Assembly: GCA_018262855.1 (NCBI GenBank)
Contig: JADFDO010000002.1
Location: 187,107-251,106, forward strand
DNA from: Methanolinea sp.
Lineage (GTDB): Archaea; Halobacteriota; Methanomicrobia; Methanomicrobiales; Methanospirillaceae
DNA length: 64,000 nucleotides
Reading direction: 5' to 3'
Position numbers and translations under genes: made by a program. The first letter of the stretch is position 1. Every line of letters starts with the position of its first letter. The notes under the pieces are model-generated. The model worked only from the letters and a program-made list of their open reading frames with translations. It was not told the origin of the DNA and ran no database searches. Below are positions 4,012 to 41,027 of this stretch, piece by piece.

Positions 4012-4012
4012 C

Positions 4013-6657: not shown

Positions 6658-8594
6658 TCGGCGACCTGGACCAGGACCGGGCGAGACCGGTACCGGAAGA
6701 CCTGCTTCCCCTTGCGAACGCCGAAGAGCGCGCCGGATGCCATGGCAAGCTCATCATTTACCTCGGATATGCTGCAGGGGTCGGCAAGACGTATACCATG
6801 CTCTGGGATGCCCTCCAGAGAAAGACTGAGGGGACCGATGTGGTGATTGGCTACGTCGAGACGCACAAGCGTGTTGAGACCGATGCTCTGGCGGCGTCCC
6901 TGGAGACACTTCCTCCGCAGCAGGTCTGGTACCAGGGACTCTCGATGAGCGAGATGGACCTTGATGCTATTCTCGAAAGGAAACCCTCAATTGTCCTTGT
7001 TGATGAGCTGGCTCACACCAATGGCCCGGGCACCCGGCACCTGAAGCGCTATCAGGATATTGAAGAGATCCTGAGAACAGGAATCTCGGTCTATACCACC
7101 GTGAACATCCAGCATGTCGAGAGCCTGAACGACGCCATTGCCCAGATTACCGGCATCCAGGTCAGGGAGACAGTCCCTGACACGTTCTTTGACCTCGCGG
7201 ACGATATCCGGCTGATCGACCTGACCCCCGAAGAACTGATCGCACGCCTGAAAGCAGGGAAAATATACCTTGGGGACATGGCCGCCCAGGCGGTGGACCA
7301 TTTCTTTTCGACCGGGAACCTGATAGCCCTCCGGCAGCTGACACTCCGGTACCTTGCCCAGCGCACCGATCGGCAGATGGTGACCCACATGCGGGCCCGT
7401 GCAATCTCCGGCCCATGGCCTGCAGTCGAACGTCTCCTTGTTGCTATCCGCCCGGGCCCTACCGCGGAGGCCATGGTGAGGGCAGCATTCCGGGACTCAC
7501 AGCGGCTGAATGCGGAATGGGTGGTGCTCTCTGTGGAAGAGGAGAGGGAGGGGCCGCCCACACCACAGGAGAAGGCCTGGCTCTCTGATGCCATGGATAC
7601 CGCCAGGAAACTAGGAGGGAAGATCGTGATCTACCGAGGAGAGGATGTCGCCCACGAGATCATCAGATATGCCCGCCAGCACAATGTGACCACGATCATG
7701 CTTGGCAAGCCCCGCGGCCTGGATATCCTTGTCTCTCCAGTCTACCGGATCATGCGCAGTTCTCCAGGGATCGATATCATCCTCTTTGACCCGAAGGGAG
7801 CCCCGTCGATCCCACTCGAACAGCAGATCCCGCATCTCCTTCCCAGGGACTATCTCATCACCCTTGTGATGATCCTTGCAGTCACACTCCTGAATTTCCT
7901 GCTGCTCGGGACTATCAGCACGGCAAACCTCATCATCATCCAGCTCCTGCCCGTCGTCGTGAGTGCCTGGTTCTTCTCCCGGAAAGCCTCCCTGTTCGCT
8001 GCAGTCGTGAGCATTCTCGTCTTCGATTTTTCATTTGTTGCTCCCTACTTCACGCTGGATATCTCGGAATGGGAATACTTCATCTCGTTTGCCGGGTACG
8101 TCGTCATCGCGATCATCATCAGCCACCTTGCAAACCGGCTCCGGTACCTCATCCCCCAGATCAGGGAAAGCGAGGCCAGGGTTGCCGCGGTTGCCGGGCT
8201 CTCCAAGGATCTCGTGAACACCGAGGGTTATCACGAAGTCCTGGAGATCCTGGCAACCCACATGCGGGCCTTCGCACCCGGAAAAGTCGCGATTCTTGTC
8301 CCTGACGACCACGGTCTCAAGGTAGCTGTCGGTGACAGTGATTACCCATTTTCAGACAAGGAGATGACCATCGCCCGCTGGGTCTACGAGAACGGGGAGA
8401 TGGCAGGACAGGGCACCGACACCCTTGTGGGAGGTACAGGTCATTATGTCCCGATGAAAGCCCACGGCCTCGTGTACGGCGTACTGGCATTTGCATTCGA
8501 GAATCCGGATACCGTACTCTCGCTGGAGACCAGGGAAGTCCCTGAAGCGATGGCCCAGCTCGGGGCACTTGCCCTTGAACGGGTGATGAAGTAA
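6654..8594 (+). CDS. kdpD: KdpD-like sensor (KdpD N-terminal P-loop domain + USP-like + 4 TM + GAF-like) lacking HisKA/HATPase domains
   Basis: GKLIIYLGYAAGVGKTYTML and LVDELAHTN (KdpD N-domain), a USP-like block (EWVVLSVEE...IMLGKPR), a hydrophobic block around aa 395-500, and a GAF-like C-terminus. ATGA overlap with kdpC. The protein stops at 646 aa with no H-box, and the next gene is on the opposite strand. Confidence 0.85.
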   Translation: MIGDLDQDRARPVPEDLLPLANAEERAGCHGKLIIYLGYAAGVGKTYTMLWDALQRKTEGTDVVIGYVETHKRVETDALAASLETLPPQQVWYQGLSMSEMDLDAILERKPSIVLVDELAHTNGPGTRHLKRYQDIEEILRTGISVYTTVNIQHVESLNDAIAQITGIQVRETVPDTFFDLADDIRLIDLTPEELIARLKAGKIYLGDMAAQAVDHFFSTGNLIALRQLTLRYLAQRTDRQMVTHMRARAISGPWPAVERLLVAIRPGPTAEAMVRAAFRDSQRLNAEWVVLSVEEEREGPPTPQEKAWLSDAMDTARKLGGKIVIYRGEDVAHEIIRYARQHNVTTIMLGKPRGLDILVSPVYRIMRSSPGIDIILFDPKGAPSIPLEQQIPHLLPRDYLITLVMILAVTLLNFLLLGTISTANLIIIQLLPVVVSAWFFSRKASLFAAVVSILVFDFSFVAPYFTLDISEWEYFISFAGYVVIAIIISHLANRLRYLIPQIRESEARVAAVAGLSKDLVNTEGYHEVLEILATHMRAFAPGKVAILVPDDHGLKVAVGDSDYPFSDKEMTIARWVYENGEMAGQGTDTLVGGTGHYVPMKAHGLVYGVLAFAFENPDTVLSLETREVPEAMAQLGALALERVMK

Positions 8595-28107: not shown

Positions 28108-29640
28108 TCACACGACCCGGACCGCCGCCCCGCTGTTCCGGGCGGACGTAATAAGGGTGGTGCCCCCTCCCGACTCCTCCATGAACTTCCTTGCTGCCTG
28201 CTCGATTCCTGTCATCCCGGTGTCCCCGACCGCGTACACGGTGGGGCCGAACGACGAGAGGCCGGCACCGGCAGCCCCCGATTCCCGGAGCACCTCGAGA
28301 AGATCGGACACCTGCGGAGGCTGGAGACCCAGTTCAACCTTCTTGAACCCCAGCCGCTGGACCGCGTTGATAGACGAGCCGAAGAGATCGAGATCGCGGG
28401 AGGCGATTCCCGGCAGCATCCGCATGAGCACCTCGTGGCAGAGCTCCCGCACCTCATCGAGCGGGACCGGGCAGTGAGCACGGAAGATATCCGTCTCGAT
28501 CTTCCCGCTCGCACCGGCAGGAACTTCCGGGATCGCGAGGAGGATGCGCCAGTCGGAAGGGAAATCATGGCGGGCGATCACGGGCGGGGGGCTGACACCC
28601 TGCGAGGCTCCGGACGGGCGGAAATCTGTCTTCTCTCCTCCCGGACCGAACCGGTGCCCGCCGTCAACGAGGAATCCCCCATACTCGAAGGCGGCCGTCC
28701 CGATCCCCGACGTCCCGCCACGGCCGACGAGCCGGGCGAGTTCCTTTACCGGCAGGGTGCGGCCATGGAGTTCGCTCAGGGCCCGGGCGACGGCGAGACC
28801 GAGCTGCGAGCCGCTCCCGAGCCCTGCATGGGACGGGTACGATTTGCGAACCGTGATCGCCACGCTTCCTCCTGCCCCGAGTTTCTGCAGCACATCCTGC
28901 GCAACGCTACGGATCCGCTCCCGGAGGGCAGGGTCGCCGCCGTTGACCGAGAGGGTGGGGGAGAGCTCGGCCTCCAGCAGGATGCCGGGTTCATCGAGCG
29001 TGATGCCGATTCCGCCGTCGACCCGACCGGAACCTCCATGCATGTCGATCAGGGTCACATGGACCCGCGATGGCGTCCGGACGATGACCCGGCGTGTATC
29101 GAGGAAACGGTTGTAGGGAAACTGCTCCTCAATAAAGATGAGCGGTTTTTCGGCGTGGATGATCCGGTACTGCCGGGAGAGGACGGGCTCATTTCTGCAG
29201 ATCCCAAAGACCCTGCCCATCTCATCGGTAGCAGGCCCAACACGGGCAGAGAGGATCTCCCGCCGGGCTTCGATATGGTGTTGCGAGATGATCCTCCCGA
29301 TGGGGATATCGGCCTTCATGAGGTCATCCTTAAAAGCCGGCGAGAGCCGGTTGATCGGAGTATGAGATATGGCATAGATCAGCACTTCGCCACTCTCTTC
29401 GATTCCTATCTCCACGATCCGGAAGTTGACCAATTCTCCTTCCGCGATATCCAGGGTCTCCGCAGTCTCCCGCTCGGCAGGGATGACCTTCTGGACAAGG
29501 GTCCTGATCACCACGCTCTTCCCGGTGATCGATTCGAGGATCTGGGTGACCGATCCGTCGGTGCCGAGCAGGAATTTCTGGACCGGCGAGATCCTTCCTA
29601 CCTGCACCTCCAGATCCCGGATTGCCTTTGCAATATCCAT
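28108..29640 (-). CDS. Fusion protein: chorismate-lyase-like (DUF98/UbiC fold) N-domain + beta-RFAP-synthase-like GHMP-kinase-fold C-domain
   Basis: N-domain: KFLLGTDGSVTQILESITGKSV...LIYAISHTPINRL...IPIGRII. C-domain: RVHVTLIDMHGGSGRVDGGIGITLDEPG and SHAGLGSGSQLGLAVARAL (GHMP motif II as in RFAP synthases), GAGLSSFGPTVYAV. ATG 29640 is preferred over the listed 29736. Confidence 0.75.
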   Translation of the reverse strand: MDIAKAIRDLEVQVGRISPVQKFLLGTDGSVTQILESITGKSVVIRTLVQKVIPAERETAETLDIAEGELVNFRIVEIGIEESGEVLIYAISHTPINRLSPAFKDDLMKADIPIGRIISQHHIEARREILSARVGPATDEMGRVFGICRNEPVLSRQYRIIHAEKPLIFIEEQFPYNRFLDTRRVIVRTPSRVHVTLIDMHGGSGRVDGGIGITLDEPGILLEAELSPTLSVNGGDPALRERIRSVAQDVLQKLGAGGSVAITVRKSYPSHAGLGSGSQLGLAVARALSELHGRTLPVKELARLVGRGGTSGIGTAAFEYGGFLVDGGHRFGPGGEKTDFRPSGASQGVSPPPVIARHDFPSDWRILLAIPEVPAGASGKIETDIFRAHCPVPLDEVRELCHEVLMRMLPGIASRDLDLFGSSINAVQRLGFKKVELGLQPPQVSDLLEVLRESGAAGAGLSSFGPTVYAVGDTGMTGIEQAARKFMEESGGGTTLITSARNSGAAVRVV

Positions 29641-29835
29641 CAAGACACCCTTCTCGCAGGAATGATATGAATGCTGCGATACGAATGCCGCGAAGAGGAT
29701 TTTCCAGGTCCTGGTTCGGGGGGATACTGGAATCATTTTTTGTGAGATCCCGGATTTTGTGCACCCTTCCCCGGCAGCACAACATATTAAATACGCCGGA
29801 TTATGAACTGTCCATTATCCACAAGGGTGATTCAG

Positions 29836-31689
29836 ATGGTACCAGATCCGCATGAGAAGGACAAGGTGGTCTTTGCAGCCACGATGGCCTCAACCTTTGA
29901 ACCTGATTCGATGACGAACGACAAGATCGAAGCCGCGACCAGGGGACATGGCGCCCTCGTCATCCCGGTCTTTGCGGCTGCCAATTCCATCGCCGAAGAT
30001 CTCTTCTGCCCCATCACGGGCCCGGAGATGAGCCTGATGGGGCGGATGACGGTCATAGACGCGTCCGTCGGAGAACTGCCCCTCGATGTGGTGATCCAGA
30101 AATCGGTGCGGGCTGCGATGAGCGCCGGGGCCGCGCCCGAGAATGCCGCACTCATTGTCGCATCCCTCGCCTATTTCTCGGGGTCCTGTGCACGGTCGGG
30201 TGTCCCGCTCGGTAACAGGAAACTCGGCGCTATTGCCCGGATGCATGCAGGCGCACCCCGGACAAGCGCGATTGCGCTGGTCACCGGCAAGTCCACCCAC
30301 CGGATCCAGTCGTTCCCGGCATACCTTGCGATCTACGAAGCGATCATGGACAAGAAACTCACGAAGGTGGACGGCTCCATGCTCCCCCCGTTCATCTCCG
30401 GCGGGGCAATCTATGGCCACTCTGCGCTTGGCGAGGACTATAACATCCCTGAACTGGCGTACAATGCCGCACATACCGGCACGCTCGCCATGATGAACAG
30501 TATGGCAGGCACAGGGGTCACCCCTCTCGCACTCTGGCCGGCCCTTATCGGCGCAGCGGTCACGATGGAGATTGTGCACCCGGACGCTCTTTTAGGCGAG
30601 GAGTATGGAAAGTTCGGAAGGGTCGATTCATCGTACCTCGCAGGGAAAGGTGCTCGCGACGCTGCGAAGTTGCCGGAGAAGCTTCACATTCGGGGAACCC
30701 ACGAGGAGTACGACACCGCCAAGGTCATCGGCGAGTTCGGGCTTATCCTCAAGGATATCGGCGGCCCTTCGGTGATCGGGTCCATGGCCCTCTCCGAGAT
30801 CTTCGCGGCCTTTGAAGAAGCCCCGATGATCGGGGCGGGCTTCTCGGGAGGCCCGGTCAACCCGCCGCTCGGCCACCTCGAAGGCGACTGCGTTCCGGCA
30901 TTGCGCCTCCTGATGAAGCACCACGGCGACATCTTCGCGGTCGCCGAGGTGATCCGGGACTACAAGATGAACTCCTTCATCGACCCCGAGATGGCCCTCT
31001 GCGGCCTGAACACCATCTCGCGAAAGGCGGAGCAGGTGACACGAGGGAAGATCACGCGGGCCTGCATCCTTGCATCTGAAGGCGTGCGTGACAGGGCCAT
31101 ATATCGCCGGGCCGCCCACACCTACGACATCATCACGGGCGGGAAAACTGTTGCAGACGCGACCCGCACGCTCGATGAGGAACGCAAGAAGTACGTGGAG
31201 CGGCGGGGCTCGGCGGTCCTGTCCGCATTTACCGGAAAGAAGATCGATCTCAAGTTCACTTCGATCAAGCCTCATGGACGGCGCACGGACAAGTTCACGG
31301 AACGCTACTGGGGTTTTGACTCGAACGTCTCCTACGATGTCACGATTGACGGGAAGACGCTTCATGTCGAGAACCTGAGCGGAAAGGAGGTTCCCGACTT
31401 TGCCCTGAAGGGAAAGAACCGCGATAACCCGGACTGGCCGGTCGCACTCTTCTGCGGCGCAGTCCTTACGCAGGAGCTCCAGTACATCGGCCATACCATC
31501 ATCAACATCACGGTCCCTGCTGCAGTCGGGGCGATCCTGGGAATGGATGCAGACAAAGCAGCAGATAAGGCTGAAGACGGGGCATTCCTGACCCGGGCGA
31601 TCCCGGGCGCTGGCGAAAAGGCAAAGGATGTTGCAAAACTCGCACAGCGGGTCTACGCAAAGATCAACGAACCGTTCCCGCCGCAGTAA
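29836..31689 (+). CDS. Conserved-looking soluble protein of unknown function (617 aa), translationally coupled to larC
   Basis: Long ORF with a balanced composition and AGGGTGA RBS 5 nt before ATG 29836 (listed start 29803). TAA 31687-31689 is immediately followed by the larC ATG at 31690. I recognise no catalytic motif. Confidence 0.7.
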   Translation: MVPDPHEKDKVVFAATMASTFEPDSMTNDKIEAATRGHGALVIPVFAAANSIAEDLFCPITGPEMSLMGRMTVIDASVGELPLDVVIQKSVRAAMSAGAAPENAALIVASLAYFSGSCARSGVPLGNRKLGAIARMHAGAPRTSAIALVTGKSTHRIQSFPAYLAIYEAIMDKKLTKVDGSMLPPFISGGAIYGHSALGEDYNIPELAYNAAHTGTLAMMNSMAGTGVTPLALWPALIGAAVTMEIVHPDALLGEEYGKFGRVDSSYLAGKGARDAAKLPEKLHIRGTHEEYDTAKVIGEFGLILKDIGGPSVIGSMALSEIFAAFEEAPMIGAGFSGGPVNPPLGHLEGDCVPALRLLMKHHGDIFAVAEVIRDYKMNSFIDPEMALCGLNTISRKAEQVTRGKITRACILASEGVRDRAIYRRAAHTYDIITGGKTVADATRTLDEERKKYVERRGSAVLSAFTGKKIDLKFTSIKPHGRRTDKFTERYWGFDSNVSYDVTIDGKTLHVENLSGKEVPDFALKGKNRDNPDWPVALFCGAVLTQELQYIGHTIINITVPAAVGAILGMDADKAADKAEDGAFLTRAIPGAGEKAKDVAKLAQRVYAKINEPFPPQ

Positions 31690-32889
31690 ATGAAGGCGCT
31701 CCTCATCGATCCAAGGACCGGGGGTATTGCAGGGGACATGCTCTGTGCGGCTCTCTGCGATCTCACCGGTTCAGTGGAACCCCTTCACACCGTTGCCGAC
31801 GCAATAAAGAGGCTTTCCCGCTGCTCAGCCTTCGAGATCTCGGTTGGACGGACGGGAACACCATGCAGTGCCGCGTACGTCTCGGTGAATGTCGAGGAAG
31901 AGAACGGGCCCGGCACTGATATCGCCCGCGATATGGACGAGGTTCTTACCACCATCGGACTCCCGTCGCCCGCGGCGGTCATGGCACGTGTGATCCTTGA
32001 CGATCTCCTCTCGGTCAAGGCCAGGTTTCACCCCGAGATCGCACCGGGCCAGACCTTCGCGTCGGTCGATACGATCTTCGATATCCTCGGTCCCCTTGCG
32101 CTCCTTGAGGATGCCGGCCTCTCCGGGTGCCCCGTCTATACCACCCCGCCCGCACTCGGCGGGGGAGTGATCCATACGCCCGGTGGCGAGGTCGGTGGGC
32201 CCGCCCCGGCATCCCTTGAGATCTGCGCTCGCCACCGGATGCCGGTCTCCGAGAGCCCTCTCTTACGAGAACTGACGACCCCGACCGGTGCGGCCCTGCT
32301 CGCGAACCTCGCCCGCGTGGTGACATTGTTCCCTGCCATGACTCCGCTCCGGACAGGGTATGGTGCGGGTTCGAAGGATCGAGGATCCGAGACGAGCATT
32401 CTCCGGGTTGTCGAGGGGGAGATTGATGACCTGACCGAAGAGCGGATCGTGATCCTCGAGACAAACCTCGACGACGTGGACGGTGAGACGATCGGGTTTA
32501 CCAGGGAGAGACTCTTTGCGGCCGGGGCGGTGGATGTTTTCGTCACGCCAGCGTCAGGGAAGAAGAACCGACCTGTCCAGGTACTCTCCGTGATTACCTC
32601 GCGAGAGGACTATCTCCCGCTTGTCAAACTCCTGATGGACGAGACCGGGACGCTTGGCGTCCGGATACGGGAGGAGCCCCGCCTGGTCGCCGACAGGGTA
32701 AAAGAACAGATCAGCGTCATGGTCAAGAATCAGCCGTTTACAGTGCGCATCAAAATATCCAGGGTGGGCGGAAAGGTCATTGCGGTCAAACCCGAGTACG
32801 AGGACTTGAAACAGATTGCGCTGGCCCTGGGAATTCCCTTGCGGTATGTCACACGGGAAGTGTACCGGCAGCTGCCGTTCAATCCCTGA
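31690..32889 (+). CDS. larC: LarC-family nickel insertion protein (DUF111)
   Basis: MKALLIDPRTGGIAGDMLCAALCDL N-terminus, ETNLDD, DETGTLGVRI. 399 aa, typical of the LarC/DUF111 family. Confidence 0.85.
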   Translation: MKALLIDPRTGGIAGDMLCAALCDLTGSVEPLHTVADAIKRLSRCSAFEISVGRTGTPCSAAYVSVNVEEENGPGTDIARDMDEVLTTIGLPSPAAVMARVILDDLLSVKARFHPEIAPGQTFASVDTIFDILGPLALLEDAGLSGCPVYTTPPALGGGVIHTPGGEVGGPAPASLEICARHRMPVSESPLLRELTTPTGAALLANLARVVTLFPAMTPLRTGYGAGSKDRGSETSILRVVEGEIDDLTEERIVILETNLDDVDGETIGFTRERLFAAGAVDVFVTPASGKKNRPVQVLSVITSREDYLPLVKLLMDETGTLGVRIREEPRLVADRVKEQISVMVKNQPFTVRIKISRVGGKVIAVKPEYEDLKQIALALGIPLRYVTREVYRQLPFNP

Positions 32890-32969
32890 TGGAGCAGGCT
32901 GTTGTGTTACCCTTTGAATCCTCCGGAAAACCTTCCCTCTTTTCCAAAGCTTGTCTTTGTCAGGGCGCC

Positions 32970-33275
32970 TCACCTGAGAATCTGCACGATCTCTTCAGGT
33001 ACGATCAGATCAAAGACCCCGTGAATTTCATACCGGGCACCGTCGAACCATTCCATCACGCTGTCGCCGGAAAAAAACCCCATTGGTCCTTTCGTGTGTA
33101 TGGTAAACACGAGAGTCCATCCCTGTTTTTCGGGTATAGGATGAATGGATCGAACTGACCCCGCAGTGGCTGGGCTTTTCATGCTGGTGAACACAATCTC
33201 CTCTTGAATAATCTCACGAGTGTAGTTCCATGAGAGAAGTGATTCGAGATCTTCGGCCCCGGGCAGGGCCATCCC
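32970..33275 (-). repeat. Direct repeat copy 1 (paralogous gene 3' portion), partner at 40494..40800
   Basis: DNA alignment by eye: both copies begin CACCTGAGAA(T/G)CTGCACGATCTCTTCAGGTACGAT and share ACACGAGAGTCCATCCCTGTTTTTCGGGTATAGGA. Roughly 80% identity. Confidence 0.7.
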
Positions 33276-33281
33276 CTTCAC
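32970..33281 (-). CDS. N-terminally shortened paralogue (103 aa) of the 177-aa protein at 40494..41027
   Basis: SVRSIHPIPEKQGWTLVFTIHT...VMEWFDGARYEIHGVFDLIVPEEIVQILR aligns along its full length with the C-terminal 100 aa of the other copy. May be a gene fragment. Confidence 0.5.
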   Translation of the reverse strand: MKGMALPGAEDLESLLSWNYTREIIQEEIVFTSMKSPATAGSVRSIHPIPEKQGWTLVFTIHTKGPMGFFSGDSVMEWFDGARYEIHGVFDLIVPEEIVQILR

Positions 33282-33422
33282 TCTTAGTAAAAAAAATCAC
33301 ATGATTCTTCAGTCCAGACACAAGCATACACAATGAACATGGAGAATGCCTTGTTCACATTCACCACCCTATGACTGACAAGTGGTCGAATGTATCAAAT
33401 GAAAATGGCTCCGCCTTTTTCT

Positions 33423-33429
33423 AAAAAAA
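33423..33429 (-). terminator. Oligo-T (T7 on minus strand) just downstream of the S-layer-like gene stop
   Basis: A7 on the plus strand at 33423-33429, 7 nt beyond the stop codon at 33436-33438. Confidence 0.35.
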
Positions 33430-33435
33430 GGTGGT

Positions 33436-35973
33436 TCAACCTCTCCTTCTGCCCATTCCAAATGTAAAGCACAGGCAAAGTCCTCCAATGAGAGTGACCA
33501 GTGAAAGACCTGTCTGTGTGGTGGGAATGGTGGTTGGCATGGTTGTCGGCTGGCTTGTCGGAGTGCTGGTGACCGTGGGTGTTGCAGTTGGGGTGGGTGT
33601 CGGGGTCACAAGGTTGAACGAGGTGGTGGCGGTCGCACCGGAGACGGTTACGCCGCTGACCCTGACAGTATAGGTATCCGGTACCAACGAGGCAGTATCA
33701 AAAGTGAACGACCAGGTATTCATATCCCCGGGGCCGTCCTGTACGATGATCGTTCCTGCGGCACCGGAGAACTCACTGCTCACGACCTTGGGGGTAGGTC
33801 CGAATGACTGTGAGGTGACCTCCACGAGCAGCCTGTTGCCAGGGGCAAGGTTAGTGGTGCCGGAGAGCGTGATCTTGTCGCCGAGAGTTGGGTTCACCAG
33901 GGGAGCGATGGTGATCTGGGGATTGACCAGCAGGAATGTCGTGGTCGTGTAGGTATCATCGATGAACGGGCTATCAAGGGCGTCGATGAGGGCATTCGCT
34001 GCCTGGGCGCTCATGAGAGACCCCGCTCCAGACATCCTGAAAATAGGGCTTCCCGTAACCGGGTACGTCGACAACACCACCTGGCGGGCGGGATCCGGGT
34101 AAATATCAAGCGTATTGGTATAGCCCGGGTGCTGTACAACCACATAGTACTGCCCACTGGAGAGTGCAGAGGTCTGCCCTTCACTCAATTCATACGAGAA
34201 TGAACCGTCCGCACTGATCGCCTGGGTGGTATAGAGGACCCGGTTGATCCCGAAGATCCAGACTGCCACTCCGGGAGAGGGATTTCCTGTCGCGGTGCCC
34301 CGGATCTCTAGCTTGTCACCCCGTGCAATGGTGGCCTCGCGGATGCCTGCGGTCACAAATGGCCGGGAAAACGAGATGGAGACGGTCGAGTACCGGCGAT
34401 CCCGCAGGTCGGATCGTGAACTCGGGCCCGAGACAACGTACACCGTATAGGACCCGGCATCGACGCCCAGGTTCCCGGTGAACCACCGGTATTCCCAGGT
34501 ATTGTCGGGATCGACCGGAACTGAGGTGAACGTCTCCGGCCGCCCTGTAATCACCGAAGTCCTGGGACTGGAGAGGCTGCCCCCCGAAGAGGGCAGGTTG
34601 GGCCCTGTCATAAAGAGGTAGACGGTATCAGACTCCGTATTGGTCCCTGACAGGGTGACCTGTTCGCCAAGGTAATAGGATCGTGACGGTCCAGAGGAGA
34701 GGCTTATGGTCCCGCGGACCACGTCAACGGTGACCTCCGAGGAGGTCAGCATCCCTGCAGAGGTCCGTTCGACCCGGAAGGTATAACTGCGGGAATCCGT
34801 TGCTGACGAGGTCTGCCATTGCACCGTCCTCGTGCCGGATCCCGGGAGGGTGACCTGGGCATAGTACCGGGTGCCGTTTGCAGGGGTGTTGGGCACATCA
34901 TCCCGGATGGTCATTCCCTGCCTCGTTGAGACGGGATGCGACCCGATGGAAAACGGTCCTCCCTCCGGGTCCATCCGGACACCCTCCTGGTTCGGGGTGA
35001 TCATAGGCGGCTGGCTCCCCTGGTCCCCGGCCATGCTCCCGGTATTCCTGACCCACAGATAATATTCTGCTCCCGGGACACCGTTGATGGTAACAGAGAA
35101 CGGGTTCCCCCTCACCACATCGGCGACATTCGATGCAATGGCAACCCGGTCGGATGCAATCCTCACCTGGACTGGCATGGGGCGGCCGGTACCAGGGACC
35201 CCCTGGAGGTTGTCCTGGAGCCGGTTGACATTATAGTCAAGGGATGCGGTATAGGTCCCGGCCTGGTAGAGGCGTGTGCCTGCCGGGCCGGTCGCTCCCG
35301 TATCCCAGCCGGTCCCGGTCCCCGGGGATGCCCAGTACCATGGCAGGGTGTTGACGTTGAGGTTCCTGATCGGGATGGAGGTACTATTGGGGCCGGCGAC
35401 CGCGGAAAGGGTAGCACCTCCGGGTGAGGTGAGCATGATCGAGAGATATCCGTCCGATGCGGGATCATACCCTGCCCTTCGCGTGATCGAGTACATATTG
35501 GTCTCGATGCGGAAATTCAGGAGAGTCCCCGGGGGTACACCCGTTCCTGAGACATCCTGGTTGGTATCCTGGTTCCAGACCCGCAGGTTCAGGGACGGGT
35601 AGAGTACTTCGAATGCAGGTGCACCCGCGGTCTGGTTCCATACATACCAGGTTCCCGTCGCATGTCCGAACTGGCTGGGGGACACGTAAAAATTCTGCTT
35701 GCTGCCGATGGTGAGGATCAGTGCCGGAACATCGACATTGATATTCGATCCGGGGGCAAACCACGCGATCTGGCTTGCATTTCCCGGGACGGCAGCGGAA
35801 ATGTCCAGCCCTTCCTCGCCAAGAAAGACCTGGTCTCCCGGACTGATGATATTCGCGGATCCGTACGCTGGAAACAGGATAAGCCCTGATGCAGTGATGA
35901 GAATCATGGCCCATAGCGTTCCCGAAACCAGGCGATGCAGGTCATCATCCGCTCCCATGTGATGTGGATTCAT
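33436..35973 (-). CDS. Large secreted cell-surface (S-layer-like) glycoprotein with Thr/Pro linker, C-terminal TM helix and basic tail
   Basis: Start ATG 35973 (GGAGAG upstream). Signal-anchor LWAMILITASGLILFPAYGSA. Many N-x-S/T sequons. C-terminus PTPTPTATPTVTSTPTSQPTTMPTTIPTTQTG-LSLVTLIGGLCLCFTFGMG-RRRG. Confidence 0.8.
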   Translation of the reverse strand: MNPHHMGADDDLHRLVSGTLWAMILITASGLILFPAYGSANIISPGDQVFLGEEGLDISAAVPGNASQIAWFAPGSNINVDVPALILTIGSKQNFYVSPSQFGHATGTWYVWNQTAGAPAFEVLYPSLNLRVWNQDTNQDVSGTGVPPGTLLNFRIETNMYSITRRAGYDPASDGYLSIMLTSPGGATLSAVAGPNSTSIPIRNLNVNTLPWYWASPGTGTGWDTGATGPAGTRLYQAGTYTASLDYNVNRLQDNLQGVPGTGRPMPVQVRIASDRVAIASNVADVVRGNPFSVTINGVPGAEYYLWVRNTGSMAGDQGSQPPMITPNQEGVRMDPEGGPFSIGSHPVSTRQGMTIRDDVPNTPANGTRYYAQVTLPGSGTRTVQWQTSSATDSRSYTFRVERTSAGMLTSSEVTVDVVRGTISLSSGPSRSYYLGEQVTLSGTNTESDTVYLFMTGPNLPSSGGSLSSPRTSVITGRPETFTSVPVDPDNTWEYRWFTGNLGVDAGSYTVYVVSGPSSRSDLRDRRYSTVSISFSRPFVTAGIREATIARGDKLEIRGTATGNPSPGVAVWIFGINRVLYTTQAISADGSFSYELSEGQTSALSSGQYYVVVQHPGYTNTLDIYPDPARQVVLSTYPVTGSPIFRMSGAGSLMSAQAANALIDALDSPFIDDTYTTTTFLLVNPQITIAPLVNPTLGDKITLSGTTNLAPGNRLLVEVTSQSFGPTPKVVSSEFSGAAGTIIVQDGPGDMNTWSFTFDTASLVPDTYTVRVSGVTVSGATATTSFNLVTPTPTPTATPTVTSTPTSQPTTMPTTIPTTQTGLSLVTLIGGLCLCFTFGMGRRRG

Positions 35974-36294
35974 GGTTCTCTTCTCTCCTGTTTGATACAG
36001 CGGTATCCCAGTGTTGGTATACCGAGGTCTAAGAAGTAAGTGAATAGGGTGAAGAGTATATAAGATCATTGACCCTGCCGGATACCGGTGGCAGGAATGC
36101 CCTGCAACGAAAGGTAAGAGATGCATCAACTTTCATATTCCCCTCCGTGATGGCTCTGATGCGAGAATCGCGGATATTCAGGGCATGGCGATCATTATTT
36201 AAGACTATATCCGAAAATTTGTCCGTTTATGATTCCCCTGCGGTTGAAGGGACGTAGTGCAGAATGAGAGAATGAAGGACCACGAGGAACACAG

Positions 36295-38829
36295 ATGGCA
36301 TCAACGTCGGAAGAGAACGCAATCGCCTGGCACTCCCTCCCTCTTGAGGATATCAGGGATCGTCTCGTCGCATCCCCTGACGGTCTTGCCGGATCGGAGG
36401 CAGAGGCCCGGCTTGCACGGTATGGAAAAAACGTGCTCCAGGAGGAGAAGACCAGCCGATTTACCATCTTAATCCGGCAATTCAGGAGCCTCCTTGTCTA
36501 CATCCTCATCATCGCGGCAGTCATCTCGCTCCTGGTCTCTGACATCAAGGACTTTTTTATCATCGTCTTCATCATCGTCGTCAACAGCGTGATCGGATAC
36601 TGGCAGGAATTGAAAGCGGAGGCATCCCTTGAGGCATTGAAGAAGATGACCGAGAGCAGAGCCTGCGTGGTAAGGGATGGCTCCCGGCAATTCATCCCCT
36701 CGCAGGATCTTGTCCCCGGTGACTGCGTGGTTCTGTCCGAAGGGGATATCGTGAGTGCTGATATCCGTCTCTTTGAGACACAATCGTTGACCGCTGACGA
36801 GTCGTCTCTCACCGGGGAATCCCTCCCTGTCTCGAAAGATCACGCGGAACGCGTACCCCCCGATGCACCTCCCTATTCCTGGAAGAACAGCCTGCTCTCC
36901 GGGACCACGGTGGTCCGGGGTTCCGGGAAGGGATACGTCGTCGGCACCGGGCAATCCACCTACCTCGCCCGTGTCGCATCACTCGCCCAGGAACGCTCCC
37001 CCGACAGCCCCTTTACCAAAGCAATACACCACTTCTCGCGGCGCTACCTCGCACTCCTCATCGGGATTTTCATCATCGTAGGGATCATCGCCTTCCTCCA
37101 GGACAGACCGATTACCGAGGTGGCCTACCTTCTCGTCGCACAGATGGTCTCCGCAGTCCCCGAGGGCCTTCCCATTGTTGTCACTATCATCATGGTTGTC
37201 GGGGCGCTTGCCCTCTCGAAGAGAAAGACGCTTGTCCGCCACCTGCCATCCGTGGAGACGATGGGGAGTGCGACGGTTATTGCATCGGATAAGACCGGGA
37301 CGATCACCGAAGGGCGCCTCTCCGTGCAGGATGTGGTTGCCCTCGACCATGACAATCTCGTCCTGGCAGCGGCACTCTGCAACGATGCGGAAGGTGGTTT
37401 GGGAGATCCCATCGACGTCGCGCTCGCCCGGTGGGTCGACGGGTACGAATCGATCCGGGAGGCACATCCCCGCCGCTGGGTGTTCCCGTTCGATACGGCA
37501 ATGAAGCTGATGGCGTCCACGAACGTGGTCTCGGGCCGCGAACGCTTCTTCATCAAGGGCGCCTACGAGGAGTTAAAGAAGTACGCCAAGAACCCCGGGG
37601 ATCTCCCTGCTCTTGATATGCAGGTCGATTCACTTGCCGGCCGCGGCCTCCGGGTGCTCGCGTTCGGGGCAGGTGACTGGCATGGCGGGGACCTATCAGA
37701 ATGGTCGTTCTCGATTGTCGGCATCGCTGGGTTCCTGGATCCGGAGAAGCCATCTGCGGCAGATGCGGTCAGTACTGCCCAGAAGGCGGGAGTCAGGGTC
37801 CTGATGATTACCGGCGACTATCCCTTAACCGCACAGGAGATCGCCCACAAGGTGCACATCTGGAAGGAGGGCGATCGCACCCTCACCGGTCCCGAGATCC
37901 AGGCAATGACGGACGAGGAACTTGCTGCTGCCCTCACCACCACCACGGTCCTTGCCCGCATCCTCCCGGAGCACAAGCACCGGATCGTCAAAGTGCTCCA
38001 GGACCATGGCGATATCGTCGCGGTCACGGGTGATGGCGTCAACGATGTCCCGGCGCTACGGGCCGCGGATCTTGGGATCGCGATGGGGAACGGAACGGAG
38101 GCTGCGAAGAGCGCTGCGAAGATGGTGATCGTCGACAATGACCTCTCTGTAATCATCGATGCCATCAGGAACGCAAGGGTGATCGTCGACAATATCCGGA
38201 AGGTGATCTATTACCTTGTCTCCACGTCGGTGACAGAGATCATGCTCATCAGCTCTTCAGTCATCGCGGGGCTCCCCCTCCCCCTCCTCCCGATCCAGAT
38301 CCTCTGGGTCAACCTTGTCACCGACGGGGTCCAGGATAAGACCTTCCCGTTTATCAAGGAAGAGGGAGACGTCATGGCGAGACGACCGGTCCACCCTGCC
38401 CGCCAGTTCTTCGACCGGCGGCAGATCCGGAGAATTGCGACTTTTGGCCTTGTCATGGGAGCGATTGGCTTTCTCCTCTTTCTCCACCTCCTTGGAAAGT
38501 ACCCCTACGTGATCGCAGTTTCGGTTATGTTCACATCGTTTGTCTGCCTCCAATGGTTCAACGGGCTGCAGGCTCAGCTCGAGTATGAACCCTACTTTCT
38601 CGACATCAGGAGAAGCCTCACCATGAACCCGTACATCTACCTTGGCATTGGGGCAGGGCTCCTGCTCCAGCTGGCTGCCATCTACCTCATCCCCGGGATA
38701 TTCGGTGTTGTTCCGCTCGCTCTTGAGCACTGGTTCTACGTTGTGGCATTCTCACTTGCAGGATTCCTGATTGTGGAGGCGATAAAATGGTGGGAACACC
38801 TTCACGGTACCAGGACTGTGTCCGGGTAA
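36295..38829 (+). CDS. Cation-transporting P-type ATPase, type II (Ca2+/Na+/Mg2+-like)
   Basis: TGES, VPEGLP (TM4), DKTGTITEG, MITGDYPLTA, VTGDGVNDVPALRAADLGIAMG. 844 aa with a C-terminal TM bundle. Confidence 0.9.
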   Translation: MASTSEENAIAWHSLPLEDIRDRLVASPDGLAGSEAEARLARYGKNVLQEEKTSRFTILIRQFRSLLVYILIIAAVISLLVSDIKDFFIIVFIIVVNSVIGYWQELKAEASLEALKKMTESRACVVRDGSRQFIPSQDLVPGDCVVLSEGDIVSADIRLFETQSLTADESSLTGESLPVSKDHAERVPPDAPPYSWKNSLLSGTTVVRGSGKGYVVGTGQSTYLARVASLAQERSPDSPFTKAIHHFSRRYLALLIGIFIIVGIIAFLQDRPITEVAYLLVAQMVSAVPEGLPIVVTIIMVVGALALSKRKTLVRHLPSVETMGSATVIASDKTGTITEGRLSVQDVVALDHDNLVLAAALCNDAEGGLGDPIDVALARWVDGYESIREAHPRRWVFPFDTAMKLMASTNVVSGRERFFIKGAYEELKKYAKNPGDLPALDMQVDSLAGRGLRVLAFGAGDWHGGDLSEWSFSIVGIAGFLDPEKPSAADAVSTAQKAGVRVLMITGDYPLTAQEIAHKVHIWKEGDRTLTGPEIQAMTDEELAAALTTTTVLARILPEHKHRIVKVLQDHGDIVAVTGDGVNDVPALRAADLGIAMGNGTEAAKSAAKMVIVDNDLSVIIDAIRNARVIVDNIRKVIYYLVSTSVTEIMLISSSVIAGLPLPLLPIQILWVNLVTDGVQDKTFPFIKEEGDVMARRPVHPARQFFDRRQIRRIATFGLVMGAIGFLLFLHLLGKYPYVIAVSVMFTSFVCLQWFNGLQAQLEYEPYFLDIRRSLTMNPYIYLGIGAGLLLQLAAIYLIPGIFGVVPLALEHWFYVVAFSLAGFLIVEAIKWWEHLHGTRTVSG

Positions 38830-38912
38830 TTCCCGGGCACAAGATTCTATAGTGCGGACAGGTGTGATGAAGAGGATGCATTCGTATTGTGGGATAGGAA
38901 AAAACTGAGAGC

Positions 38913-40328
38913 ATGGAACGCTGGTCATCGAATATCGGGTTTATCCTGGCATCAATCGGCGCAGCGGTAGGGATCGGGAACATCTGGCGGTTCTCTGCCG
39001 TCCTCGGACAGAACGGAGGCGGGGCATACCTCGTCCCGTACTTCATCGCCGTCTTTGTCTTCGCTCTGCCGCTGATGATCCTCGAGATCACGATGGGAAG
39101 GCAGTTTCGTGCAGATGTCGTGGGTGCGTTCCGGAAGGTGAGGCCGGAGTTCCGCGTCATAGGGTGGCTCCTCTGCGCGATCGTGTTCCTGATCCTGAGT
39201 TACTACCTCGTAATCACAGGGTGGACGGTTGCCTACACCTTTTTCTCTGCGACGGGGAGCAATGTCGTCTTCTCCGGGTTCACCGGAACATACCTCCCGG
39301 TGATCTTTGCAGTATTCTCCGTTGTGGTTACAGGAATCATCGTCTCGATCGGAGTCCAGAAAGGAATCGAACGGATCTCCGTGATCCTGATTCCCGTCTG
39401 TATTGTGATCCTCGTTATCCTCGCCCTCTTCAGCACCACGCTCCCGGGGTTTGGCGAGGCACTCACCTATCTCCTGACTCCGGATTTCTCTGTCCTCCTC
39501 CATGCAGATATCTGGGCCGCAGCGTTCGGGCAGGCATTCTTTTCGCTCTCGGTCGGTGAAGGAATCCTTCTCACCTACGGCTCTTACATGGCAAAGGATC
39601 AGAAGATCCCGTCCGCCGCCCTGATCATCACCGTTGCGGATATCGGGATCGCACTGCTTGCAGGCGTGGTCATCTTCCCGATCGTCTTTTCGTACGGGCT
39701 CTCTCCTGCAATCGGAGCCGAGCTTGCATTCACGACACTCCCGATCGCGTTCTCGCTGATGCCGGCCGGGCAGATCTTTGCGGTCGCGTTCTTTGCGGTC
39801 CTTTTCTTTGCTGCGCTCACGTCATCGGTTTCCATGCTGGAAGTCTGCGTTGCAGCGATCGAGGAGGCTGCCGGGTGGGCCCGGAGGAAGACCACCCTGG
39901 TGGTGACAGGCCTGCTCCTGGTCGCAACCATGTTCCCTGCGCTCAGTTACAGTGCGATGAAGCTTTCCTTCCTTGGATTGCCCGTCCTTGATCTCATGGA
40001 TGAGACCGTAGGCTCTCTCGGGCTTCATGTTGCTGCCCTGCTCCTTGCCGTGGCCTTCACCTGGTTCCTCAAGGAGGATCTCTTTTCAGCATACCTGGGA
40101 GGACCAACCCGCCTGAACCGGCTCCTCTTCCTCCTCTGCAAGTACCTTATCCCGGTAGGCCTTCTCGTCACGATTGTCTCACAACTGGTCAACGGCATGG
40201 AGGGTGCGGCAAGTTCCTTCATCCCCGGCACCCGTGAGATCGGTGCAATCCTCCAGGTGGAGGGGGTCTTCCTTGTTGCGTTCATCGTGCTGATTCTCTG
40301 GACCATTGCCCGGAAACCCATGGAGTAA
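38913..40328 (+). CDS. Sodium-dependent transporter, NSS/SNF family
   Basis: MERWSSNIGFILASIGAAVGIGNIWRFSAVLGQNGGGAYLVPYF is the canonical NSS TM1 region. About 11-12 TM helices. Confidence 0.9.
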   Translation: MERWSSNIGFILASIGAAVGIGNIWRFSAVLGQNGGGAYLVPYFIAVFVFALPLMILEITMGRQFRADVVGAFRKVRPEFRVIGWLLCAIVFLILSYYLVITGWTVAYTFFSATGSNVVFSGFTGTYLPVIFAVFSVVVTGIIVSIGVQKGIERISVILIPVCIVILVILALFSTTLPGFGEALTYLLTPDFSVLLHADIWAAAFGQAFFSLSVGEGILLTYGSYMAKDQKIPSAALIITVADIGIALLAGVVIFPIVFSYGLSPAIGAELAFTTLPIAFSLMPAGQIFAVAFFAVLFFAALTSSVSMLEVCVAAIEEAAGWARRKTTLVVTGLLLVATMFPALSYSAMKLSFLGLPVLDLMDETVGSLGLHVAALLLAVAFTWFLKEDLFSAYLGGPTRLNRLLFLLCKYLIPVGLLVTIVSQLVNGMEGAASSFIPGTREIGAILQVEGVFLVAFIVLILWTIARKPME

Positions 40329-40493
40329 GTGATGGTGTGATCCTGCATGCATTCTTTTTTGAATTCCTTCCAACCTGGATCCAGTATCCTGTGTTAGGGA
40401 GATACCCCGCATACCTGCGGCACATGAACCAGGATACCTGGAGAGGAAAGGGATGCTCCAGATGGGGCCTGTGAATACCCTGACCTGAACCCC

Positions 40494-40800
40494 TCACCTG
40501 AGAAGCTGCACGATCTCTTCAGGTACGATAAGATCAAAGAGCCCGTGAATCTCGGCCCGGGCACCGTCGAACCATTCCACTATGCTTTCACTTGAGAGAA
40601 ACCCCGCGGGTTCCTCTGTGTGCATGGTGAACACGAGAGTCCATCCCTGTTTTTCGGGTATAGGACGGATGGATCGGACCGATCCTTCACTGCCAGGAAT
40701 CTTCATGCTGGTGAACAAGATCTTGTCCTGTGTGGTCTCACAATTGAAGCTCCGTGAGACGAGATGCTCGATCTCTGCAGTCCCGGGCAGGTGTATGCCG
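40494..40800 (-). repeat. Direct repeat copy 2, partner at 32970..33275
   Basis: See copy 1. Same orientation, about 7.5 kb apart. Confidence 0.7.
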
Positions 40801-41027
40801 GGAGGGACAGATAAGAGGTCAGTATATCGGAGTGTGCACCCCGTGATCCGGGAGATCTCCCCCGCACCGGTGATCATATCCGTGATCCTATCCCTGATAT
40901 GCGGCCAACCCGGGTAGGGAGGAGGGATTACCAGGGAGAGTGATTCAGCACCAGGTCCAGGGGTGCAGCAGCAGAAGACCTCCTGGACCGGTGAACGGGA
41001 AAAGGAATGTGGCAGGGGATGGTCCAT
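40494..41027 (-). CDS. Hypothetical protein (177 aa), full-length paralogue of 32970..33281
   Basis: ORF with C-terminal SVRSIRPIPEKQGWTLVFTMHT...IVEWFDGARAEIHGLFDLIVPEEIVQLLR. Function unknown. Confidence 0.55.
   Translation of the reverse strand: MDHPLPHSFSRSPVQEVFCCCTPGPGAESLSLVIPPPYPGWPHIRDRITDMITGAGEISRITGCTLRYTDLLSVPPGIHLPGTAEIEHLVSRSFNCETTQDKILFTSMKIPGSEGSVRSIRPIPEKQGWTLVFTMHTEEPAGFLSSESIVEWFDGARAEIHGLFDLIVPEEIVQLLR

Follow-up and report, generated by a model that had tools for sequence, protein, structure and literature searches.

A Conserved Archaeal Protein Paired with LarC, a Nickel-Insertion Family Protein Whose Nickel Site Is Lost in Several Methanogen Lineages

Results

A LarC-Family Gene and Its Two Neighbors

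The stretch of DNA analyzed here, 64,000 nucleotides from Methanolinea sp. (assembly GCA_018262855.1, contig JADFDO010000002.1, positions 187,107 to 251,106 of the forward strand), is referred to below as the window. At 28108-32889 it encodes a LarC-family protein, a 617-residue protein that we call U617 and, divergently, a fusion of a chorismate-pyruvate-lyase-like domain to RFAP synthase. A preliminary description of the window had placed these three genes here and proposed that they cooperate; all three are indeed present. U617 occupies 29836-31689 on the forward strand. Its open reading frame (ORF) opens at 29803, but the start was set at the ATG at 29836 because of the homologues and of a ribosome-binding site, GGTGAT, at 29826-29831. 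The U617 stop codon (TAA, 31687-31689) directly touches the ATG at 31690 of larC, which extends to 32889 on the same strand and encodes a 399-residue protein identified by PF01969, NCBIfam and the LarC structure 12bi. This protein, LarC*, consists of a LarC1-type domain with an altered nickel-insertion site (31690-32424, from the alignment to 12bi) followed by a LarC2-type domain (32437-32889, from NF052512 and invariant columns), the type that binds cytidine triphosphate (CTP) and transfers cytidine monophosphate (CMP).

The fusion lies on the reverse strand and was recognized by Pfam and NCBIfam. Its ORF spans 28108-29736; the gene is probably 28108-29640, with an ATG at 29640 that gives 510 residues, because the homologues are of that length. 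The chorismate-lyase-like (Rv2949c-like/UTRA) domain corresponds to 29113-29568 (PF01947 over ORF residues 57-208) and the RFAP synthase domain, of the GHMP-kinase fold, to 28123-29085 (NF040726 over residues 218-538), both on the reverse strand. The divergent genes for the fusion and U617 are separated by 195 bp (29641-29835, a region without strand that was read directly), in which an A+T-rich TATA-like box, ATATTAAATA, is found ahead of U617 at 29784-29793. No Rfam family matched anywhere in the window, and the idea of a riboswitch or other RNA in this intergenic region was set aside.

That larC stands in these 64 kb with no LarA, LarB or LarE gene, as the preliminary description had noted, was borne out by tblastn and by domain scans. 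Three LarB and two LarE queries found nothing in the window at E < 1e-5, and DUF2088/LarA, AIRC and LarE-type PP-loop domains are absent from the Pfam and NCBIfam scans, which covered about 40 of the 54 window ORFs of at least 90 residues. The ORFs outside the scans encode KdpB, KdpC, a PKD-repeat protein, a histidine kinase, an S-layer-like protein and a P-type ATPase (by eye), together with short unassigned ORFs.

U617 and LarC Form a Conserved Unit

The U617 family comprises 465 homologues with 53-91% identity, and U617 is 92-95% identical to the copies in Methanolinea, Methanoregula and other metagenome-assembled genomes (MAGs) of the Methanoregulaceae. Among representatives of 185,579 species there are 115 relatives, and the family extends over the Methanomicrobiales, Methanotrichaceae, Archaeoglobi, several orders of Thermoproteota and the Asgard archaea (Thor-, Odin- and Promethearchaeota). 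None from Methanococcales, Methanobacteriales or Methanosarcina occurs among the named entries of the best 120 U617 matches or among the 80 loci that were kept from the 115 GTDB matches. The context counts given below were made on 89 sequences. The contigs of two divergent representatives, P0241 and P0250, are only 2.2-2.5 kb long and are uninformative on context. The sole ostensibly bacterial U617-LarC locus (L044, DIVU01000002.1, "Desulfuromonadaceae bacterium UBA6124") carries a U617 that is 69% identical to that of the window and similar to the U617 of Methanoculleus; the contig is probably archaeal and was placed in the wrong bin.

In 76 of the 89 sequences a LarC-type gene lies no more than 428 bp from U617, with a median gap of 24 bp, and in 71 of these 76 close pairs it is downstream and on the same strand. 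In five more it is found 1-1.6 kb away with only larE or larB between, and eight sequences are broken off by contig ends. A LarC-type gene is thus located beside U617, or one lar gene off, at 81 of 81 informative loci, which represent Halobacteriota, Thermoproteota and Asgard, and no other neighbor of U617 nears this frequency. These observations support U617 and LarC as a functional unit, encoded in an ancient, conserved two-gene operon.

In several phyla the pair is joined by further genes of the Lar pathway, the identities of LarB, LarE and LarC2 passing the NCBIfam cutoffs. Thermoproteota loci contain larB-larC-larE-U617 (L006, L052, L056 and L075), while L007 has the order larE-U617-larB-larC and L046 the order larC-larE-U617. 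Adjacency to larBCE with no larA nearby was the criterion by which the hydride transferase NphT was discovered, and these six loci display it; the window does not, as only LarC* adjoins U617 there. In the Asgard loci L008, L078 and L080, U617, a gene for a LarC2-only protein and larB follow one another, and in L081 larB lies upstream of U617 on the opposite strand. The LarC2-only proteins that adjoin U617 in L008, L078 and L081 have 163-169 residues, and second LarC2-only copies are present in L006 and L048. The invariable partner of U617 is the CTP-binding LarC2 domain, which is part of LarC in Halobacteriota and Thermoproteota and stands alone in Asgard. Within 10 kb of U617, neither larB nor larE was found in Methanomicrobiales or Methanotrichaceae. 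A search with the LarB of L048 returned 5005 matches; those of the best 120 for which a source is named belong to Thermoproteota, Korarchaeota, Bathyarchaeota or Aenigmatarchaeota and are uninformative for Methanoregulaceae. A ribokinase-like PfkB-type kinase of about 475 residues, with an N-terminal extension of about 170, directly follows U617 in L006 (9988-11421) and L075 (11971-13398), and the same kinase lies near U617 in a third lar-U617 cluster, L056 (1924-3246).

Altered Nickel Sites and Retained CTP-Binding Domains in LarC

At the family level LarC* has the two-domain architecture of LarC1 followed by LarC2. It matches PF01969 (Ni_insertion) with 280.6 bits over residues 4-387, the NCBIfam LarC2 family (NF052512) with 120.6 bits against a cutoff of 50, the NCBIfam LarC1 family (TIGR00299) with 94.2 bits against a cutoff of 90, and the full-length LarC structure 12bi with E = 1.6e-35. 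The residues required for nickel insertion are known from a 2026 cryogenic electron microscopy and mutagenesis study of the M. thermoacetica LarC, in which E104 is the proposed nucleophile (PMC13510736). Substitution of the equivalent L. plantarum residue, E124, abolishes LarC activity and E104A markedly lowers it, as do E119A, D124A and D128A; H108A, H118A and H160A leave less than 10% of the activity and H116A about 60% (PMC13510736).

To map this site, LarC* was aligned to 12bi and, in an ungapped motif alignment, to canonical archaeal LarCs, including the 46%-identical protein of L041. Residue E104 is replaced by K110 in LarC*, H116 by P119, H118 by Q121, E119 by T122 and H160 by G165, and of the six nickel-insertion residues only H108 is kept, as H114. 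The surrounding acidic residues D15, D124, D128 and E187 are also kept, as D16, D127, D131 and E194. The metallation of a cofactor by LarC*, which the preliminary description had suggested, is consequently doubtful given the importance of the five lost residues (PMC13510736). By sequence, LarC* would not be a canonical nickel insertase, and its name holds at the family level. In contrast to the LarC1 site, the LarC2 domain of LarC* keeps all 18 of the columns that are invariant in 13 canonical LarCs, E257, D261, D262, K291, K292, R294, R325 and E369 (window numbering) among them.

This state is widespread. Among 60 full-length LarCs that adjoin U617, 12 are canonical, with an EHHHEH signature, six are near-canonical and 42 are altered. 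The canonical proteins come from the Thermoproteota lar clusters, Archaeoglobi and two Methanoculleus, and the altered ones from Methanoregulaceae, Methanofollis, Methanothrix, some Methanoculleus, Methanocorpusculum and one Thermofilaceae. The replacement residues differ between lineages, and we therefore infer several independent losses of the LarC1 nickel site; in the Methanocorpusculum copies the whole H116-E119 and H160 regions are deleted. Every altered group nonetheless retains 15-18 of the 18 LarC2 invariants. The same divergence is seen in the NCBIfam scores, the LarC1 score (cutoff 90) falling from 169 and 146 in the canonical proteins of L075 and L041 to 98 in Methanothrix, 94 in LarC* of the window, 76 in an eroded Methanoculleus copy and 33 in Methanocorpusculum, and the LarC2 score remaining at 111-132 bits in every full-length copy tested.

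The altered LarC1 domain of Methanoregulaceae is no pseudogene: its ORF is intact, its ratio of nonsynonymous to synonymous substitution rates (dN/dS) is 0.11-0.19, and 31-35 of 40 canonical invariants are kept. For the LarC1 of Methanocorpusculum, with dN/dS values up to 0.43 and deletions, pseudogenization is only partly applicable. U617 for its part is the same whether LarC1 is intact or not. Where LarC is canonical, 292 U617 columns are conserved, and 218 of them are equally conserved where it is altered; no conserved His, Lys, Asp or Glu is lost in the latter group, and the other differences are conservative or affect variable Lys/Glu positions that look like surface residues.

U617 Has a Predicted Novel Fold

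No match to U617 was obtained in Pfam, NCBIfam or the PDB, either by sequence or by profile. Its AlphaFold2 model (pLDDT 87.2, pTM 0.89) is almost entirely α-helical, with one small sheet, and Foldseek comparison of the model with 350,542 PDB chains gave a best E value of 0.08 at a TM score of about 0.1. A profile search of 1.8 billion cluster representatives returned the family itself, as about 15 full-length clusters and fragments. None of these searches revealed a remote homologue outside the family, and U617 appears to represent an uncharacterized archaeal family with a predicted novel fold. By Pfam and Foldseek it has neither the LarA (DUF2088) fold nor the TIM barrel of the aldo-keto reductases (AKRs), though LarA structures are present in the PDB. 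Because transporters were among the weak Foldseek matches, a membrane location was considered and rejected in favor of a soluble protein: no transmembrane segment is predicted, no 19-residue window has a hydropathy above 1.6, and the grand average of hydropathy is -0.02. The name "methylthioribose-1-phosphate isomerase," a label that JGI, and NCBI records taken from it, give to the homologues P0011, P0016, P0035, P0053 and others, has no backing from Pfam, NCBIfam, PDB or fold searches and looks like a propagated misannotation.

The family evolves very slowly (dN/dS = 0.02-0.05) and has about 150 invariant columns, including the motifs ARxGVPxGNRK, GGxxYGHSxLGED, VHPD, GFSGGPVNPPxGH and RRxDxF. 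The lysines K129, K152 and K377 and the histidines H195, H248, H284 and H347 are invariant, and the alignment contains no conserved Cys and no His-rich metal patch. Two of the most-conserved glycine-rich stretches, residues 120-124 and 337-346, are low-confidence loops in the model, as would be expected of phosphate- or nucleotide-binding loops that become ordered by their ligand. The motifs ARxGVPxGNRK and GFSGGPVNPPxGH are thus likely to form a phosphate- or nucleotide-binding site in U617.

Methanopterin and One-Carbon Genes around U617

Genes of methanopterin biosynthesis or of tetrahydromethanopterin (H4MPT)-dependent one-carbon (C1) metabolism, as identified by Pfam and NCBIfam cutoffs, are located within 10 kb of U617 in 23 of the 89 sequences. 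Of the contexts that place the U617-LarC pair beside or inside such clusters, at least 10 are independent. The GTP cyclohydrolase MptA (TIGR00294, 422 bits against a cutoff of 220) is encoded immediately upstream of U617 in 11 Methanocorpusculum-type loci. The Thermoprotei locus L079 has the order RFAP synthase, DUF1464, DmrX (TIGR02700, 276 against a cutoff of 251), DHPS-like (TIGR00284), MptA, CitG-like and U617, the last at the contig end. In L007 the larE-U617-larB-larC genes lie inside an H4MPT cluster with genes for RFAP synthase, NTP_transf_2, a pterin-binding protein, DUF447 and a HisA/F-like protein, and further for hydantoinase-like and ATP-grasp proteins, MfnB, Mch, FwdC and Ftr. 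In L048, L070, L074 and L081, U617 is found among fwdABC, ftr, mch, MtdB-like, CitG-like or NTP_transf_2 genes. Embedding among H4MPT genes recurs in independent lineages and involves multiple genes in L007, L048, L070, L074, L079 and L081; such multi-gene embeddings in unrelated phyla are not due to chance.

CitG-like genes, of the triphosphoribosyl-transferase family, and one to three NTP_transf_2 genes recur in these surroundings (L070, 12853-15964; L079, 8765-9754; L081, 5941-9050; L007, 3659-4756). The analogy with CitG and CitX makes their products good candidates to attach the α-ribosyl phosphate and the hydroxyglutarate phosphodiester of methanopterin. U617 itself was considered as a CDP-type transferase for the hydroxyglutarate phosphodiester, and this idea was given low weight, the CitG-like and NTP_transf_2-like genes being better candidates. 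A gene resembling that for MtdB, the methylene-H4MPT dehydrogenase of the NAD(P) type (Pfam Mpt_N), lies near U617 in five Thermoproteota or unclassified archaeal loci (L068, 2752-3645, directly downstream; L081, 12425; L070, 18355-19290; L074, 1223; L056, 49). Its product could be an alternative client of the nickel-pincer cofactor, as NAD(P) folds are known to have adopted that cofactor in NphT.

The RFAP Synthase Fusion

RFAP synthase catalyzes the first committed step in the arylamine branch of methanopterin biosynthesis. The fusion of the window passes the cutoff of the RFAP synthase equivalog NF040726 (393.9 bits against 328, over profile positions 2-326 of 327), matches TIGR00144 with 370.9 bits, and contains both GHMP_kinases_N (PF00288) and GHMP_kinases_C (PF08544); it is accordingly a member of the RFAP synthase (MptG) family. 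Its N-terminal part matches PF01947 (Rv2949c-like) with 91.6 bits against a cutoff of 22, matches UTRA as well, and matches the cyanobacterial chorismate lyase NF037993 weakly (34 bits against a cutoff of 175). The fold family of this domain is thus established, and its lyase activity is inferred from sequence.

The preliminary description had suggested that the fusion cooperates with LarC and U617 in a nickel-cofactor pathway. Against this, the best 120 homologues (72-99% identity, about 510 residues) all carry the same combination of PF01947 and GHMP-kinase domains and belong to Methanoregula or Methanoregulaceae wherever their source names them. The fusion is the standard Methanoregulaceae copy of RFAP synthase and no specialized paralogue. 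That the lyase-like and synthase domains are joined in all of the best 120 homologues argues that 4-hydroxybenzoate made from chorismate feeds the arylamine branch in Methanoregulaceae, in agreement with White's phenol-to-aniline route.

Conservation of the three-gene order across Methanomicrobia, which the preliminary description had proposed as a check of its idea, was found only within the species of the window. The Methanoregulaceae MAG PtaB.Bin (GCA_002067155.1) has an RFAP synthase 99% identical to that of the window, on a 5-kb contig that shows 98.0% nucleotide identity to window positions 28024-33058 and contains the same three genes. This MAG aside, no RFAP synthase lies within 10 kb of the U617 loci of Methanoregulaceae, other Methanomicrobiales or Methanotrichaceae; among 88 fetched loci one is found at this distance only in L007 and L079, from distant lineages. 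Conversely, neither U617 nor LarC was seen near the closest RFAP synthase homologue for which the context could be used (86% identity; 24 contigs were read). In blastn with locus L009 of Methanolinea, the closest genus, the alignment covers U617 and LarC and starts at window position 29768, so that it ends just upstream of U617. Because no relatives share the order and synteny breaks upstream of U617, the placement of RFAP synthase next to U617-larC is a species-level rearrangement. Two unrelated units, RFAP synthase and the U617-LarC pair, have been joined by this recent event, and the fusion is a housekeeping enzyme of the methanopterin arylamine branch that stands outside the conserved U617-LarC module.

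Cooperation among the three genes is therefore upheld for U617 and LarC, at 81 of 81 informative loci, and not for RFAP synthase, the adjacency of which is unconserved. The suggested tie between RFAP synthase and LarC likewise survives in part: direct adjacency and a new nickel cofactor fall away, and what remains are the methanopterin and C1 clusters near U617 in independent lineages. These give some support to a pathway-level connection between RFAP synthase and the LarC locus, with a shared product that would be related to methanopterin rather than being a new nickel cofactor.

Other Features of the Window

Downstream of larC a 103-residue ORF (32970-33281, reverse strand) is about 75% identical to the C-terminal part of a 177-residue ORF at 40494-41027 (reverse strand), a full-length homologue of which directly follows larC in L009. 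The shorter ORF is thus a truncated paralogue, and about 7.2 kb of DNA (33282-40493) seems to have been inserted into the window, flanked by the duplicated gene end and encoding an SNF transporter, a P-type ATPase and a surface protein of the PGF type. A mercury-methylation pair is encoded at 23241-24673 on the reverse strand. It consists of hgcA (23573-24673; NF040863, 441 bits against a cutoff of 275) and, following it, a gene for an HgcB-like ferredoxin of 110 residues with two [4Fe-4S] motifs and a Cys-rich tail (23241-23573). The HgcA cap-helix, NVWCAAGEG, has a Glu where Lys is the consensus residue. A gene for an SBF/ACR3-type transporter (21899-23080) adjoins this pair. The window also contains an ordinary, complete kdpA-kdpB-kdpC-kdpD potassium-uptake operon at 2305-8594 on the forward strand.

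Discussion

Any account of U617 has to accommodate several features at once. The data require a LarC2-type partner for U617 everywhere and, in several phyla, linkage to larB, either alone or together with larE; they also require that U617 be unchanged where the adjacent LarC cannot insert nickel and that it occur in a methanopterin and C1 neighborhood. No single model explains everything. The reading that we favor, to which we assign a probability of roughly 40%, is that U617 is a methanopterin-linked enzyme served by the CTP-dependent module of LarC, with nickel being dispensable in the lineage of the window. Here, as elsewhere in this work, all functional statements on U617 draw on gene context and conservation.

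According to this proposal, U617 would act as an enzyme of methanopterin-linked metabolism, and the LarC2 activity, which uses CTP to convert the 5'-phosphate of a ribotide to a CMP-ribotide, would hand it an activated pyridinium ribotide of the Lar type, to be used either as a cofactor or as a substrate. Where LarC1 is intact this ribotide could be the nickel-pincer nucleotide. In the lineage of the window, LarC* would no longer insert nickel, and the module might be nickel-free or might operate on a cofactor metallated elsewhere.

Several points weigh against this proposal. Should larB, larE or a second canonical larC be present elsewhere in the genome, a plain nickel-pincer client model would be favored. 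The presence of a Lar-type ribotide in Methanomicrobiales and Methanotrichaceae is an assumption, given that neither larB nor larE lies within 10 kb of U617 in these groups. In Archaeoglobi and Thermoproteota, LarC1 is canonical and strongly constrained (dN/dS of about 0.06 in an Archaeoglobi pair), and nickel insertion must therefore matter in many genomes that contain U617. U617 also cannot be a universal step of methanopterin metabolism, since it was not found in the sampled Methanococcales, Methanobacteriales and Methanosarcina, methanopterin producers as well. Finally, a single H4MPT gene would, by a rough estimate, be encountered within 10 kb by chance at about 20% of loci, such that only the multi-gene embeddings are compelling.

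A bolder reading, which we consider possible though doubtful, is that U617 would represent a structurally unprecedented class of archaeal Lar-cofactor enzymes and would tie the nickel-pincer pathway to methanopterin biosynthesis or to H4MPT-dependent C1 metabolism. The lineages with an eroded LarC1 or with LarC2 alone would then use a nickel-free pyridinium dicarboxylate, made by LarB and CMP-ylated by LarC2, in the form of a cytidine dinucleotide. In the radical version of this idea, LarC* would have switched to the aryl C-ribotide made by RFAP synthase.

In a stricter model, U617 would be a nickel-pincer client, that is, a third fold after LarA and NphT that employs the nickel-pincer nucleotide for hydride transfer, with larB, larE and a competent larC encoded elsewhere and LarC* acting as a specialized loading or chaperone paralogue. 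U617 does take the place of larA in the compact lar operons, where no other client candidate is present (L006, L007, L046, L052, L056 and L075), the H4MPT cluster of L007 encloses both U617 and the lar genes, and the invariant K129, K152 and K377 and H195, H248, H284 and H347 of U617 could tether the cofactor and ligate nickel. In addition, Archaeoglobi and some Methanoculleus have a canonical LarC by U617 with neither larB nor larE within 10 kb, so lar genes can be unlinked in those genomes. However, residues that nickel insertion depends on are missing from 42 of the 60 LarCs next to U617 and were lost repeatedly and independently, while U617 stayed unchanged; the Methanocorpusculum LarCs lack whole regions of the nickel site, and in Asgard loci only LarC2 and larB accompany U617. 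On balance we regard a strict client as unlikely.

The Asgard trio of larB, LarC2 and U617, which does without LarC1, is what would be expected if U617 instead helped to make the nickel-pincer cofactor, for example as an alternative or improved insertase or as a nickel donor acting with LarC2. LarC1 would then be redundant in some lineages, and the client would be encoded elsewhere. Such an accessory role would account for a catalytic erosion of LarC1 that is confined to places where U617 is present and that leaves LarC2 intact, and the high conservation of U617 and its lack of paralogue diversification are more like those of a LarB-type biosynthetic enzyme with a single universal substrate than those of a diversified client family. 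Yet LarC1 next to U617 remains canonical and under strong selection in Thermoproteota and Archaeoglobi and has not been replaced there, U617 has no conserved Cys or His-rich metal patch, and the repeated embedding in methanopterin and C1 clusters is left unexplained. These points make the accessory role improbable.

We attach still less weight to a wholly nickel-independent step in methanopterin biosynthesis, in which LarC* would bind and CMP-activate the aryl C-ribotide produced by RFAP synthase (RFH-P or RFA-P) in place of the pyridinium ribotide and U617 would perform the next step, a candidate for which is the as yet unassigned NTP- and aspartate-dependent conversion of phenol to aniline that is completed by PurB. 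The chemistry is attractive. The substrates are analogous, each being a six-membered aromatic ring on a β-ribofuranosyl 5'-phosphate that would be modified para to the ribose; D15, D124, D128 and E187 of the pocket persist even though E104 has become Lys or Arg and the nickel histidines are lost; with its chorismate-lyase domain, the fusion implies that the route passes through 4-hydroxybenzoate; and PurB turns RFSA-P into RFA-P (White 2011, as related in PMC3261824). RFAP synthase does lie beside U617 in the window, L007 and L079, but this adjacency is unconserved. Moreover, the residues that replace those of the LarC1 site vary by lineage (K/R, G, F/Y or D), which resembles relaxed selection and not a shared new active site, and the linkage of U617 to larB and larE would be unaccounted for. 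M. jannaschii uses the same route and is not known to have U617, Methanococcales being absent from the U617 matches listed.

The model of the preliminary description, in which a new nickel cofactor built on an aryl ribotide is made or metallated jointly by the products of the three genes (LarC, U617 and the fusion), has in its favor the adjacency of the three genes in the window and the same-species MAG and a general chemical analogy of the two ribotides, but with LarC* lacking the nickel-insertion residues, the gene order confined to one species and the fusion being the ordinary RFAP synthase of its family, it is very improbable.

To our knowledge, several steps of methanopterin biosynthesis are still without an assigned enzyme, and neither U617 nor LarC has been listed among the methanopterin genes. 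Our literature searches found no paper that links LarC/DUF111 to methanopterin or describes the U617 family. As regards the Lar pathway, larBCE is present without larA in about 15% of genomes (PMC11796402), from which it follows that other proteins must use the nickel-pincer cofactor, a question that has stood since 2014. The only Lar-cofactor enzymes that we found in the literature are LarA homologues, the AKR-type NphT (Nat Chem 2026) and an NPAD-dependent ornithine cyclodeaminase. U617 is a concrete, testable archaeal candidate for such a protein, with a predicted new fold, 100% penetrance of LarC linkage and repeated placement near methanopterin and C1 genes. The repeated loss of the nickel site with retention of the CTP domain sets the two activities of LarC apart evolutionarily, which suggests that LarC2 does more than assist nickel insertion. 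In many methanogens, the automated annotation of these genes as "nickel insertion protein LarC" is probably mistaken.

Comparison with Known Systems

The closest known arrangement is the L. plantarum lar operon (larA-larB-larC1/C2-larE), which encodes nickel-pincer synthesis and lactate racemase. The LarC1 plus LarC2 architecture is common to this operon and the LarC of the window, and the Thermoproteota relatives cluster LarB, LarC and LarE with one nonbiosynthetic gene at the place of larA. That gene, however, is U617, which has no similarity in sequence or fold to LarA (DUF2088), and in the window there is no larB or larE nearby and the nickel site of LarC1 is altered.

A precedent for new users of the cofactor is NphT, one of several related AKR-fold, NPMN-dependent hydride transferases reported in 2026, to which adjacency to larBCE in the absence of larA led in a pipeline that mined bacterial genomes (PMC13524815). 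The NPAD-dependent ornithine cyclodeaminase is cited in the same paper (PMC13524815). Together they provide precedent both for unrelated folds that use Lar cofactors and for the existence of dinucleotide variants. These enzymes differ from U617 in being bacterial and in having known NAD(P)-binding folds (TIM barrel and Rossmann), whereas U617 is archaeal, predicted to be all-α and without a known relative.

The C-terminal domain of LarC* also matches stand-alone LarC2 structures, namely the L. plantarum LarC2 domain (6bwo, E = 3e-17) and Methanopyrus MK0293 (3c19, E = 1e-7). Unlike these, the LarC2 of the window is joined to a LarC1-like domain, which as a whole is conserved but lacks the nickel-site residues. 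With respect to the methanopterin clusters of archaea and methylotrophs, which comprise MptA, MptG, DHPS-like, DmrX, CitG-like, NTP_transf_2, DUF1464 and DUF447 genes, L007 and L079 have U617 embedded in them, whether lar genes accompany it or not, and in the window and in Methanocorpusculum a single member (RFAP synthase and MptA, respectively) lies next to U617. Set against these systems, the locus is a variant of the Lar system in which the partner protein is new and LarC has lost its nickel site; binding of a Lar cofactor by U617, if demonstrated, could make it more than such a variant.

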